Under the pieces are notes generated by a model that was not told the DNA's origin, searched no databases, and worked only from the letters and a program-made list of their open reading frames with translations. From a bacterium (GTDB taxonomy: Bacteria; Babelota; Babeliae; Babelales; Vermiphilaceae): a stretch of 36,614 nt of DNA. Position 1 is the first letter of the stretch. Every line of letters begins with the position of its first letter. This document shows, in pieces, positions 20,153-22,374 of this stretch. The translations under genes were made by a program, and so were the position numbers. Location of the stretch: contig DAOUPL010000001.1 of the NCBI GenBank assembly GCA_030626185.1, positions 1 to 36,614 on the forward strand, read 5' to 3'.

Positions 20153-20536
20153 TCAACCAAACGGCGTTTCACTTGTTTCAATGGTATATTGATCATTTTC
20201 ATGTTTGATCATGACGTATTGTGGCATTGTTTTACAAACCTTGTCTCGCCAAAAACCTAGTATTTTTACAAGTTCTTTTTGATGGATCTTTAATTTTGTA
20301 GGCACTTTTTCTTCAGAATATTCATCTTCTAAAAAAACATAGTCGCCTTCTTTTTCTAAAAAAACGGTATTACCACCAACGCATTCTGTGGTAGGGTTTA
20401 AAATCCACTCTTTAAAAGATGATCCTAAACACCCTTCGTTATCAGTAAGAAAAATTCCAAGAGTATCCATTTCGATAGAGCTTCCTCCATCATAAAAGTA
20501 AGAATTTCCTGTATAGCGTAATTTAACGTAATTCAT
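20153..20536 (-). CDS. Putative cognate immunity protein for the upstream EndoU-like toxin
   Basis: 127 aa, acidic, with no signal peptide. Its start codon overlaps the toxin stop (ATGA at 20533-20536), which indicates translational coupling. The assignment rests on context only. Confidence 0.5.
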   Translation of the reverse strand: MNYVKLRYTGNSYFYDGGSSIEMDTLGIFLTDNEGCLGSSFKEWILNPTTECVGGNTVFLEKEGDYVFLEDEYSEEKVPTKLKIHQKELVKILGFWRDKVCKTMPQYVMIKHENDQYTIETSETPFG

Positions 20537-22374
20537 CTTTTTATTACCTTTTCTATAATGGGATAAAGTGTTTTTAAATGTCCTTTTTTAGTAAAAATCA
20601 TGCCGATCTCTATATTATTTTTACTAAAACCTCTTGCTAAGTAGTTGCCATTAGAAAGTTCTTTAGCTTTACTGCTTTTGCTTAAAAAGTCTTTATAGGC
20701 TTCACAAAATATCCCCATTACTTGTTCCCATGTCAAGTTTGATGGAAAAAAAGTTGCCCCTTTTTTTATTATTTTTCCATTATAAACAAGGTCAACTTGA
20801 TAAACACCATTTTTTAATATTCTTTTATTTATAAATTTAATTATTCCGCTTTTTTCAATTTCTTGTAAGTAATCTAAATGCCATCCTCCTAGACGTGATA
20901 TTCCATTTTTATTTGATTTAAGATGTATACCAAAAAAATGTTCAAAGTTAAATTTAATAAATTTATTTTTAAATTCAGCGAATCCTTTTAGTTTTCCATT
21001 AAACATATCTTTAAGTTTTGCAATTTGTGGGGCAAGTTTATCCATAAATTGTTTTTGAAAAACCTCAAAAGTTGGGCGACAAACTTCAGCAGCTTTCTTT
21101 GCTACAGAACCAATTTGTCTCGCTTTTTCACGATAGTGCATTGTAACACCTTCTGCTGTTGCAACAGCATATTCAACTGCTGGATCCGTCATAAGGGATT
21201 CAACAATAGAATTCAGTAATGGTTTCATACGAGAACATAATTTAAAGCCAAGATCAAAAGCTTTGCCAATTAACACCCATTCAACAGCAAAAGCTGTAGA
21301 ATTTTTTGCAATGTTACGATTGGATGTTGCAGCTAGTTGTACAGCACAAGAGTCAAACATAAACTTGCACTGACCATAAAGTTCTTGTGAATATTTAAGT
21401 GTTCCAGGGTAATCACCCGTTAGCATTAAAAGGTCAAATTTCACTCGAATGCCAACTACTTTGCCAATAGCTAAAAGTAAACTTCCAGCTCCGTGGCAAA
21501 AATTTTGTGTTGTTTCTATTGGATGTCGAACCACATTACCAATAAATGCTCCTGTATTGTAAATACCTTCCTTAATTCCTTCAGCAACACCTTTTGCTAT
21601 TTCTAATGCTTCGTGACAAAAAGTTACCCATTTATTTGCAATCTCTTTTTCATGACGAACATTCGCTTCTATACCAATTGCAGCACCATGGCCGACAGCA
21701 TCAAGAAAAAATTGGCAATCAGGAGCTTGTTGATAAACATCTACAAGCTCTGATGCCTGTGAAAGTTGATTAACAAATTTTTTGTGAAGATTATATTCTG
21801 ACGTATCGTTAAACTTGTGAGTAATTTGTTGTTTTGTAATATCGTACGATTGTGCAAATTCAATAACGTGATTATCAATCGGTATCGATCGTACTGCTTG
21901 CTTTTTTTGTTGCAGCTCATCGTAAAATTGATTAGCGCGCCCTTGTAAGCCCTTGGTATAACCACCAAAAAATCTTCCTAATAATTTAAAAACACTGCCT
22001 TTATTACAAAATTTTTTATGTAGAGCAATAATAGCTTCTTCGTAACCTGGCAATGTTTTTGCGTACTCTACAAATTCATCCGACATAAATTGACTATCTT
22101 CTTCAAAAACATCTTTTTCTGAATATTTATAACAAGTAAAATACTCTTTAAGTTGTGAAGCAGAAAGTTTAGAAAGATCTATTTGACGAGAATACGTTAC
22201 TCGTGGGGATTTGTGCGTACGCATGCCTGATCGGAAATCAGAAAAATTGTTATGATAATTGTGTGTATTGGCTTGATTAAGTGTTATAGAAAGATCTGGA
22301 GAAGAGTTTAATAAAGCACTACAAATAAACAGCAAAAACATGATTATTTTATATTTTTTCTCTTTCTTTTCCAT
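20533..22374 (-). CDS. Signal-peptide protein with C-terminal bacterial EndoU-like ribonuclease toxin domain
   Basis: The last 136 aa (20536..20943) read EHFFGIH..GISRLGGWH...NGVYQVDLVYNGKIIKKGATFFPSNLTWEQVMGIFCEAYKD...GNYLARGFSKNNIEIGMIFTKKGHLKTLYPI. This matches the EndoU_bacteria pattern as I remember it: H.F.G...GxH, K..TFFP..W..e.V...I.eAy, G..I......G.i.T.YP. The N-terminus has a hydrophobic leader, KIIMFLLFICSALL. The start is uncertain (ATG 22374, ATG 22341 or TTG 22392). Confidence 0.65.
   Translation of the reverse strand: MEKKEKKYKIIMFLLFICSALLNSSPDLSITLNQANTHNYHNNFSDFRSGMRTHKSPRVTYSRQIDLSKLSASQLKEYFTCYKYSEKDVFEEDSQFMSDEFVEYAKTLPGYEEAIIALHKKFCNKGSVFKLLGRFFGGYTKGLQGRANQFYDELQQKKQAVRSIPIDNHVIEFAQSYDITKQQITHKFNDTSEYNLHKKFVNQLSQASELVDVYQQAPDCQFFLDAVGHGAAIGIEANVRHEKEIANKWVTFCHEALEIAKGVAEGIKEGIYNTGAFIGNVVRHPIETTQNFCHGAGSLLLAIGKVVGIRVKFDLLMLTGDYPGTLKYSQELYGQCKFMFDSCAVQLAATSNRNIAKNSTAFAVEWVLIGKAFDLGFKLCSRMKPLLNSIVESLMTDPAVEYAVATAEGVTMHYREKARQIGSVAKKAAEVCRPTFEVFQKQFMDKLAPQIAKLKDMFNGKLKGFAEFKNKFIKFNFEHFFGIHLKSNKNGISRLGGWHLDYLQEIEKSGIIKFINKRILKNGVYQVDLVYNGKIIKKGATFFPSNLTWEQVMGIFCEAYKDFLSKSSKAKELSNGNYLARGFSKNNIEIGMIFTKKGHLKTLYPIIEKVIKR

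Follow-up and report, generated by a model that had tools for sequence, protein, structure and literature searches.

A predicted exported EndoU toxin with an adjoining putative immunity gene in a Dependentiae bacterium: probable members of a previously undescribed polymorphic toxin family

Introduction

Why would an obligate intracellular bacterium encode a large, apparently exported protein that ends in a ribonuclease (RNase) domain, together with a small acidic protein whose gene begins inside the stop codon of the first? This question is raised by a locus at positions 20,153 to 22,374 of a 36,614-nucleotide (nt) stretch of DNA (contig DAOUPL010000001.1 of the assembly GCA_030626185.1; family Vermiphilaceae, order Babelales), which is referred to below, at its full length, as the window. 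An earlier reading, made from the sequence only, described the large gene as a polymorphic-toxin-like gene with a Sec signal and a C-terminal EndoU-type RNase domain and the small gene as its immunity gene. The analysis presented here followed up this proposal using profile searches, structure prediction, and a comparison of related loci. The two genes are best understood as a toxin-immunity pair that is part of an as yet undescribed family of polymorphic toxins in the Dependentiae (TM6/Babeliales-like bacteria) and is probably directed against rival bacteria; the probability of this reading is estimated at about 0.75.

An EndoU Domain at the C-Terminus of the Toxin

The toxin consists of a long N-terminal scaffold and a C-terminal portion, the tip. 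When the protein was compared with Pfam-A using hmmscan, the tip matched the model PF14436 (EndoU_bacteria) with 36.1 bits and an E value of 9.9e-9, covering profile positions 5–128 of 129. The curated gathering cut-off of this model is 25.3 bits. The tip of the homolog P0002 scored 35.9 bits, and 18 members of the scaffold family matched the same model, with a best E value of 7.7e-15. The identity of the domain is therefore directly supported by a match that passes a curated cut-off, and the EndoU call of the sequence-only reading was borne out.

The conserved residues point in the same direction. In an alignment of 30 related tips, H479, G497, H499, and D501 are invariant, and the TFFP motif (541–544), S/T548, T595, T602, and a C-terminal TxYP are nearly so. 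The pair of histidines that had been noticed from the sequence was recovered at the expected site, with His479 in FEH and His499 in GGWH, and the two further motifs, KKGATFFPSNLTWEQV and IEIGMIFTKKGHLKTLYPI, were both found in the tip. Judged by its sequence, the residue pattern appears to match the H, H, [SNT], [SNT] signature of the Tox-EndoU family. In the AlphaFold2 model, the tip forms an alpha+beta domain with a predicted local distance difference test score (pLDDT) of 85–93. It is also the most AT-rich coding segment, having a G+C content of 27.2% compared with 35.9% for the whole window.

One Scaffold, Many Tips

The profile of the scaffold (amino acids (aa) 1–427) was searched against 1.84 billion representative proteins. 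It retrieved 166 representative clusters at E ≤ 1e-3, with 27 remaining at E ≤ 1e-30, and the matches span two separable modules, at approximately aa 10–165 and at aa 160–428. The tails of the 73 near-complete members fall into 17 unrelated clusters, so at least 17 tips are carried by this scaffold. The largest groups comprise EndoU-type tips (22 members), tips of the type found in the homolog P0003 (14), and a third type (12), and the rest form smaller groups. Several of the tips are named toxin domains in Pfam: EndoU_bacteria in 18 members, Ntox35 in 13, and Ntox17 and a barnase-type Ribonuclease in one each. One member also contains a PT-HINT pretoxin domain. In the same scan of the 73 members, the scaffold itself was not matched by any Pfam model.

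The architecture of one scaffold with variable tips was thus observed directly, and the label "polymorphic-toxin-like" proved appropriate. In the sense of Zhang et al. (2012), who define polymorphic toxins by a constant N-terminal region combined with diverse tips, the protein can be classed by its sequence as a polymorphic toxin.

Exchange of tips is visible among close relatives. A word-indexed search returned only two full-length relatives. In P0002 (620 aa, JGI metagenome), scaffold and EndoU tip both correspond to those of the window toxin, and P0003 (482 aa, from NCBI) has a scaffold that is 74–75% identical and a C-terminus that is unrelated beyond the junction TAEG...REKAxQIGSAAK. Between the window and the related locus L001, the tip is 74% identical and the immunity protein 79%, compared with 58% for the scaffold. 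Because the tip and the immunity protein are more conserved than the scaffold to which they are attached, cassette exchange can be proposed.

The partner gene downstream also appears, from the gene order, to change when the tip changes. EndoU tips are followed by a member of the 127-aa family, and the P0003-type tip (in L001, L003, and L004) is always followed by a gene for a CdiI-like protein of 109–110 aa (PF28101). This second tip type (...YYNKLW..GRGAPS...DGWEM.YNP...; L001 1–737, L003 2–953, L004 1–964) is without a Pfam match, and together with the PF28101 gene, it is an uncharacterised toxin/immunity pair on the same scaffold.

The Putative Immunity Gene and Orphan Cassettes

The small gene encodes a protein of 127 aa, and its ATG overlaps the TGA of the toxin within AAAAGATGAATTAC, in the ATGA arrangement that had been noted earlier. 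Its product is an acidic protein with a pI of 4.73 and a net charge of −8, in contrast to the basic toxin tip, for which the pI is 9.89. A profile of the protein collected 40 family members, for which no Pfam match was found below an E value of 0.005. An identity with DUF2026 was considered and rejected, as the weak matches in 4 of the 40 members were all sub-threshold. The AlphaFold2 model (pLDDT 93.4) has a compact alpha+beta fold, for which a Foldseek search of the PDB gave no fold neighbour; the best match (E 0.067, TM ≤ 0.32) was weak sliding-clamp noise. Since neither a Pfam match nor a PDB neighbour was found, the protein is apparently unrelated to the known EndoU immunity proteins.

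Hidden Markov models (HMMs) of the tip, the immunity protein, and the scaffold were run on the stop-to-stop open reading frames (ORFs) of the window and of the related loci that were fetched. A gene of the immunity family lies directly after the EndoU-tip gene in 17 of 17 cases at nine loci: one pair each in the window, L001, L034, L035, and L037, two in L032, three each in L005 and L033, and four in L036. The pairwise identities of tips and immunity proteins are correlated across nine pairs (r 0.75), and in a Mantel test, this value was reached by 10 of 5000 permutations.

Some of these pairs occur without a complete toxin gene. Orphan cassettes, made up of a tip and its immunity gene, are located downstream of full-length genes in L005, L032, L033, and L036, and toxin-less orphan copies of the immunity gene were found in L001 (827–1225) and in L002–L004. 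The locus L005, from a metagenome-assembled genome of a Candidatus Babeliales bacterium, is a good illustration. Its 901-aa toxin combines a signal peptide, a Hint-like region, module B of the scaffold, and an EndoU tip. Its 253-aa immunity gene (5820–6581) overlaps with the stop codon of this toxin and is a tandem fusion of two domains that are only moderately similar. Two orphan EndoU tips without promoters follow, each with its own immunity gene after it.

The strict linkage of toxin and immunity genes and the existence of orphan cassettes are thus direct observations. Combined with the translational coupling and the opposite charges of the two proteins, they support the earlier immunity call, and the 127-aa protein can be regarded as the putative cognate immunity protein.

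Further observations were made at the related loci. In L006 (981–3453) and L007 (925–3397), there is an array of small ORFs (59, three times 135, 133, and 166–168 aa), which includes one member of the immunity family and no toxin gene; it lies near genes for Bro-N, ankyrin, and Y1 transposase proteins and may be a heterogeneous poly-immunity locus. Short GIY-YIG ORFs (PF01541) are found between the cassettes of L036 (2541–2780 and 5702–5896), and another (L006 3878–4120) adjoins the lone immunity-family gene. Such ORFs may be homing-endonuclease-like elements that aid the movement or duplication of cassettes. In P0040, a 141-aa protein from a Logan assembly, the first ~70 aa correspond to module B (profile positions 341–411) and the C-terminal half to the C-terminus of the immunity family. 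This chimera is apparently a recombination remnant that joins toxin and immunity sequences.

Architecture of the Toxin

In the six-frame list, the toxin ORF extends over 20533..22392 (−) and encodes 619 aa from a TTG start. Read from the ATG at position 22374, the protein has 613 aa, and its beginning lines up with that of P0002, the closest homolog; for this reason, this ATG was taken as the start. The features of the locus are collected in Table 1.

At the N-terminus, a basic n-region precedes a hydrophobic core of 12 aa, for which the Kyte-Doolittle hydropathy is 2.99. By a charge and hydrophobicity heuristic, this N-terminus is a predicted Sec-type export signal, and a comparable signal-like N-terminus is present in 43 of the 58 full-length members of the scaffold family. 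A lipoprotein signal peptide was also considered and was rejected, as LFIC fits a lipobox poorly and P0002 lacks the Cys.

The sequence-only reading regarded the N-terminal region as unrecognised and helical. This description held, since the scaffold has no Pfam match and the AlphaFold2 model is almost wholly helical over the N-terminal ~460 aa. Many matches in the profile search span positions ~10–165 alone, which corresponds to module A. In the structural model, this module has low-to-moderate pLDDT values, and aa 21–65 are partly disordered. Module B is more confidently modelled (pLDDT 88–92 over aa 170–270) and is also conserved in the 901-aa toxin of L005 and the 755-aa toxin of L033, despite their different N-termini. 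Between aa 220 and 320, it contains five GxxxG motifs, compared with 1.5 ± 1.1 in shuffled sequences (five were reached in 17 of 2000 shuffles). Its C-terminal junction (...TAEG...REKAxQIGSAAK) is conserved, and the alignment places the exchange of tips beyond it. The linker that follows, part of a helix modelled at aa 414–458, is also found on EndoU tips carried by other scaffolds and is not present in P0003.

Table 1. Features of the toxin locus and its flanks, with positions in the window.
Feature	Position	Strand	Basis or remark
Toxin gene	20533..22374	−	613 aa + TGA stop; ORF list, PF14436, homologs P0002/P0003
Predicted Sec-type signal peptide, aa 1–~25	22300..22374	−	MEKKEKKYK-IIMFLLFICSALL-NSS; charge/hydropathy heuristic, cleavage site approximate
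Scaffold module A, aa ~26–160	21895..22299	−	profile search; recurs independently of module B in relatives
Scaffold module B, aa ~161–426	21097..21894	−	helical-hairpin bundle, GxxxG motifs; ends at tip junction
Tip-specific helical linker, aa 427–476	20947..21096	−	accompanies EndoU domain
EndoU_bacteria RNase domain, aa 477–606	20557..20946	−	PF14436 match
His479 (FEH)	20938–20940	−	codon within EndoU domain
His499 (GGWH)	20878–20880	−	codon CAT
Thr541 of TFFP	20752–20754	−	codon within EndoU domain
Putative cognate immunity gene, 127 aa	20153..20536	−	ATGA overlap with toxin stop; 40-member family
AT-rich hairpin	20099..20140		inverted repeat, 19-nt arms, 4-nt loop, 89% complementary
Direct repeat, left copy, 125 nt	19638..19762	+	repeat search, alignment of copies
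Direct repeat, right copy, 125 nt	22488..22612	+	promoter-like box, ribosome-binding site, first ~16 codons of tmk

Proposed Function and Alternative Explanations

A working mechanism can be outlined, in which four elements are inferred: that the tip acts as an RNase, how the toxin is exported, how it enters a cell, and which target it attacks. The toxin and the acidic immunity protein would be translated in a coupled manner from a single transcript. The latter would bind and block the basic RNase in the producing cell and likewise neutralize toxin arriving from kin. Sec would carry the toxin across the inner membrane, and a further step, comparable to that of the Neisseria protein MafB, would release it or display it on the surface. 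The scaffold, and probably module B, may mediate entry into a neighbouring bacterium in the same eukaryotic host cell or vacuole. There, the EndoU tip would cut RNA, most likely tRNA or another U-containing single-stranded RNA, by a metal-independent His/His acid-base reaction that leaves 2',3'-cyclic phosphate ends, and cells without the matching immunity protein would be arrested.

Several results weigh against the reading of the locus as an interbacterial EndoU toxin-immunity pair, or at least against parts of it. The first concerns the active site. EndoU enzymes are known for a catalytic His-His-Lys triad, in which the lysine is K224 in XendoU and K290 in Nsp15, and in XendoU the histidines are paired with the alcoholic residues S229 and T278. 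The sequence-only reading had made such a constellation a point to be checked, and this check was answered in part. The two histidines are invariant in the 30 tips; the lysine has no fixed column in the family alignment. In the window tip, K537-K538 sit at −4/−3 relative to T541, and in the relatives, the Lys is found at −1, −3, or −4. As the lysine before TFFP shifts register in this way, a fixed triad was not demonstrated. The second concerns the fold. Searches of PDB sequences with the protein and with two tip profiles retrieved no solved EndoU structure, including 5HKQ, and a Foldseek search of the PDB with the full-length model gave no significant match and no EndoU structure, the multidomain query having probably diluted the tip. 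The BECR-fold toxin BrnT appeared at rank 22 with a probability of 0.84, below significance. In BFVD, a fragment of the Middle East respiratory syndrome (MERS) replicase 1ab was matched with a probability of 0.98 (E 0.045) and an unnamed entry with a probability of 1.00 (E 0.026). These three matches are the only structural echoes. Because no solved EndoU structure was retrieved, the domain call rests on the curated Pfam threshold and on motif conservation, not on a fold match.

The remaining points of this kind concern the immunity gene and delivery. Part of the correlation between tip and immunity identities stems from a single close pair and from common ancestry. The HMM search of the window ORFs found no orphan cassette, so the expectation of such cassettes held for L005, L032, L033, and L036 and failed for the window itself. 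Pfam scans of 30 window ORFs also gave no recognisable outer-membrane secretion partner. The same scans found no families of the type V secretion system (T5SS), of contact-dependent inhibition (CDI), of two-partner secretion (TPS), or of type VI secretion systems (T6SS), and no Rhs, LXG, or WXG families, in agreement with the earlier remark that no such marker is present. The signal-like N-terminus of the toxin is the sole export feature.

The alternative that survives best is a host-directed effector. The secreted EndoU would then act on the RNA of its protist or amoeba host, and the 127-aa protein would protect the producer before export, in a barstar-like manner. The Dependentiae live as obligate intracellular parasites and possess numerous proteins with a Sec signal that are directed at the host (PMC6561590), an ankyrin-repeat protein is encoded in the window, and the EndoU fold also functions in eukaryotic and nidoviral settings (PMC7297114). 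The lack of a bacterium-to-bacterium delivery machine among the scanned ORFs would likewise fit. However, the toxin-less copies of the immunity gene (L001 827–1225, L002–L004, L006/L007) and the several diverged tip/immunity cassettes in one genome both fit protection from non-self toxins and would be superfluous for simple self-protection. Zhang et al. (2012, PMC3482391) have noted that host-directed toxins of intracellular bacteria are typically without immunity genes and that adjacent immunity genes in endosymbionts argue for conflict between bacteria and not for an attack on the host. Following this reasoning, conflict among related bacteria is favoured because of the orphan immunity genes and the diverged cassettes, and a role of the toxin in the host is considered unlikely.

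A nutritional role of the enzyme is a further alternative. The genome paper on Chromulinavorax lists endoU among the nucleases proposed for the breakdown of host biopolymers (PMC6561590); here, host RNA would be broken down by the enzyme into nucleotides that the bacterium is unable to synthesize, and the small ORF would serve as an intracellular inhibitor. Such a role gives no reason for a scaffold with at least 17 interchangeable, unrelated tips, including Ntox35 and Ntox17, and the orphan tip/immunity cassettes would be unexplained for a feeding enzyme. This explanation is therefore very improbable.

The 127-aa protein could instead be a chaperone, an adaptor, or an export factor for the delivery of EndoU tips. 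Its family is without a Pfam or PDB fold match, and linkage to the tip would be equally expected of an adaptor. Nevertheless, its gene is positioned downstream of the toxin gene and overlaps it at the start codon, as is usual for immunity genes, and the acidic protein faces a basic tip. Members of the family also occur as stand-alone orphans, in the small-ORF array of L006/L007, and as a tandem fusion, and they follow promoter-less orphan tips that cannot be exported. An adaptor role can be given very little credence. Finally, it is scarcely credible that the pair works inside the cell, as a type II toxin-antitoxin or anti-phage module, and is similar to a secreted toxin in appearance only: a two-gene, translationally coupled RNase/inhibitor pair would suit such a module, but the toxin gene comes first, is very large, and carries a scaffold of ~426 aa with a signal-like peptide, its tip families are those of polymorphic toxins, and no match was found with PADLOC or in IMG/VR viral contigs.

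The interpretation as an interbacterial toxin-immunity pair may be extended. Dependentiae might possess their own Sec-dependent polymorphic-toxin platform, in which the GxxxG-rich module B is a self-contained membrane-translocation device that works without a type V, VI, or VII secretion apparatus. Through this device, RNase and other tips would reach bacteria that co-infect a shared host cell; the system would be paired with a structurally new immunity fold and serve superinfection exclusion or kin discrimination among obligate intracellular parasites. This extension is speculative; it is possible, and at present more doubtful than likely.

Genomic Surroundings

The window carries the housekeeping genes gltX, rbfA, tmk, holB, dciA, murG, and uppS. 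Genes for a prepilin peptidase, a pseudopilin, the ankyrin-repeat protein, the a and c subunits of ATP synthase, and a class A penicillin-binding protein are also present. GltX is 45–53% identical to GTDB representatives, of which the best-named are Candidatus Dependentiae/Babeliales, and the named homologs of the tip and the immunity protein come from Candidatus Babeliales. Both results support a placement of the host in the Dependentiae, where it is a novel, Babeliales-like lineage. No relatives of the toxin were found in GTDB representative genomes, and the contig index lists neither the exact proteins of the window nor that of P0003. At the locus, PADLOC and NCBIfam gave no match. A viral origin was dropped because scans of IMG/VR viral contigs were negative for the immunity protein and the tip.

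Downstream of the immunity gene lies a convergent ORF of 117 aa (19714–20067) that has a signal-like N-terminus and no Pfam, NCBIfam, or PADLOC match. It was considered as a component of the system and was rejected, as no homolog is encoded in any related toxin locus. The AT-rich hairpin between the two convergent genes is likely a bidirectional terminator. The two 125-nt direct repeats are 82% identical, are spaced by 2850 nt, and flank a 2.85-kb block made up of the 117-aa ORF, the immunity gene, and the toxin gene. Each copy contains a TTCACA-17-TACACT promoter-like box, an AAAGGA ribosome-binding site, and the first ~16 codons (M-x-x-LS-x-x-ALSGLL-x-VG) of a plus-strand ORF. The repeat is possibly the scar of an insertion or duplication that put the block beside tmk.

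The tmk ORF (22564–23331) itself has an N-terminal extension of ~55 aa with a hydrophobic, signal-peptide-like start, and its Pfam domain begins at aa 59. Cytoplasmic kinases do not usually have such an extension; translation may in fact begin at a codon further downstream, or the additional residues may have arisen with the 125-nt repeat. Elsewhere in the window, a 321-aa ORF (12586–13551) that adjoins the ATP synthase a subunit gene has three ATP-synt_C (PF00137) matches and looks like a multiplied, fused c subunit in place of the usual hairpin of ~80 aa. A bacterial class A RNase P RNA is located at 29961–30329 (full-length match, 203 bits).

Novelty and Significance

The EndoU domain itself is known, and relatives of the toxin are already automatically annotated as "EndoU domain-containing protein". 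The scaffold, which is without a Pfam model, the immunity family, which has neither a Pfam model nor a PDB neighbour, and the presence of a complete toxin/immunity/orphan system in Dependentiae appear to be new. In the full-text library that was searched, no paper joins Dependentiae with the term "polymorphic toxin", and the only two that name Dependentiae and EndoU together interpret the enzyme as a nuclease for nutrition. Among obligate intracellular bacteria, complete polymorphic toxin systems that include immunity genes are regarded as rare (Zhang et al. 2012, PMC3482391).

If the proposed reading is true, members of the little-known Dependentiae compete with each other inside their protist hosts by means of an uncatalogued delivery scaffold and immunity fold. 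The family could then be used as a marker of strain-level conflict in this group, and it would provide a new pre-toxin or translocation domain and a new fold of RNase inhibitors. It would also offer a toxin and its antidote as a tractable pair for expression in E. coli.

Comparison with Known Systems

One comparison is with the eukaryotic XendoU and the nidoviral Nsp15 (NendoU). The motifs FEH.., GG[FWL]H, and a C-terminal G-H-x-x-T-x-YP-x-L resemble those of these enzymes, with weak statistical support. In an hhalign comparison with an Nsp15 C-terminal sequence, the C-terminal half was aligned with an E value of 0.0019 and a probability of 14%; this alignment was not used to assign catalytic residues. 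Unlike XendoU and Nsp15, the protein described here has no N-terminal oligomerisation domains and is found in the context of a bacterial toxin.

Another is with the bacterial Tox-EndoU domains (PF14436; Zhang et al., PMC3482391). The tip scores above the cut-off of this family, appears to have the H, H, [ST], [ST] pattern, and forms the very C-terminal end of a multidomain protein that is predicted to be secreted, and the scheme of Zhang et al. would class the toxin as "T2SS/Sec-dependent" (T2SS, type II secretion system). Two differences can be indicated. The spacing between His479 and His499 is 20 residues, whereas 12–18 are usual, and the 127-aa family is none of the immunity partners described for Tox-EndoU (SUKH, SuFu, and Imm28; PMC3482391).

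Among the characterised systems, CdiA-CT(STECO31)/CdiI of E. coli (PDB 5HKQ; PMC7297114) has in common with the present pair an EndoU RNase tip and a small cognate immunity gene directly downstream. In contrast to CDI, a T5SS-based system, Pfam scans of the toxin and the window ORFs revealed no TPS domain, FHA repeats, VENN motif, or CdiB, and the junction motif is TAEG...GSAAK instead of VENN. The model of the 127-aa protein matches no PDB chain, and thus not the CdiI of 5HKQ. Rhs/YD, PAAR, LXG, and WXG100 domains, too, were found neither in the toxin, nor in the scaffold family, nor in the window ORFs by Pfam.

By analogy, the closest functional counterpart is probably the MafB/MafI system of Neisseria, in which MafB_MGI-1 of strain NEM8013 is an EndoU RNase (PMC4287609). 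There are clear differences. No relation to the N-terminal domain of MafB (DUF1020) was detectable with Pfam in the 73 scaffold members, no mafA-like lipoprotein gene is present, the immunity family is a different one, the scaffold is longer and all-helical, and the host belongs to another phylum, here the obligate intracellular Dependentiae. In both systems, the step beyond Sec export, which is predicted for the window toxin, apparently uses neither the T5SS nor the T6SS. Nevertheless, the organization is parallel: in both, a Sec signal peptide (here a predicted one) is followed by a constant N-terminal region and a variable C-terminal toxin, one of which is an EndoU RNase, the immunity gene lies immediately downstream, and extra orphan cassettes accompany the complete pair (PMC4287609).

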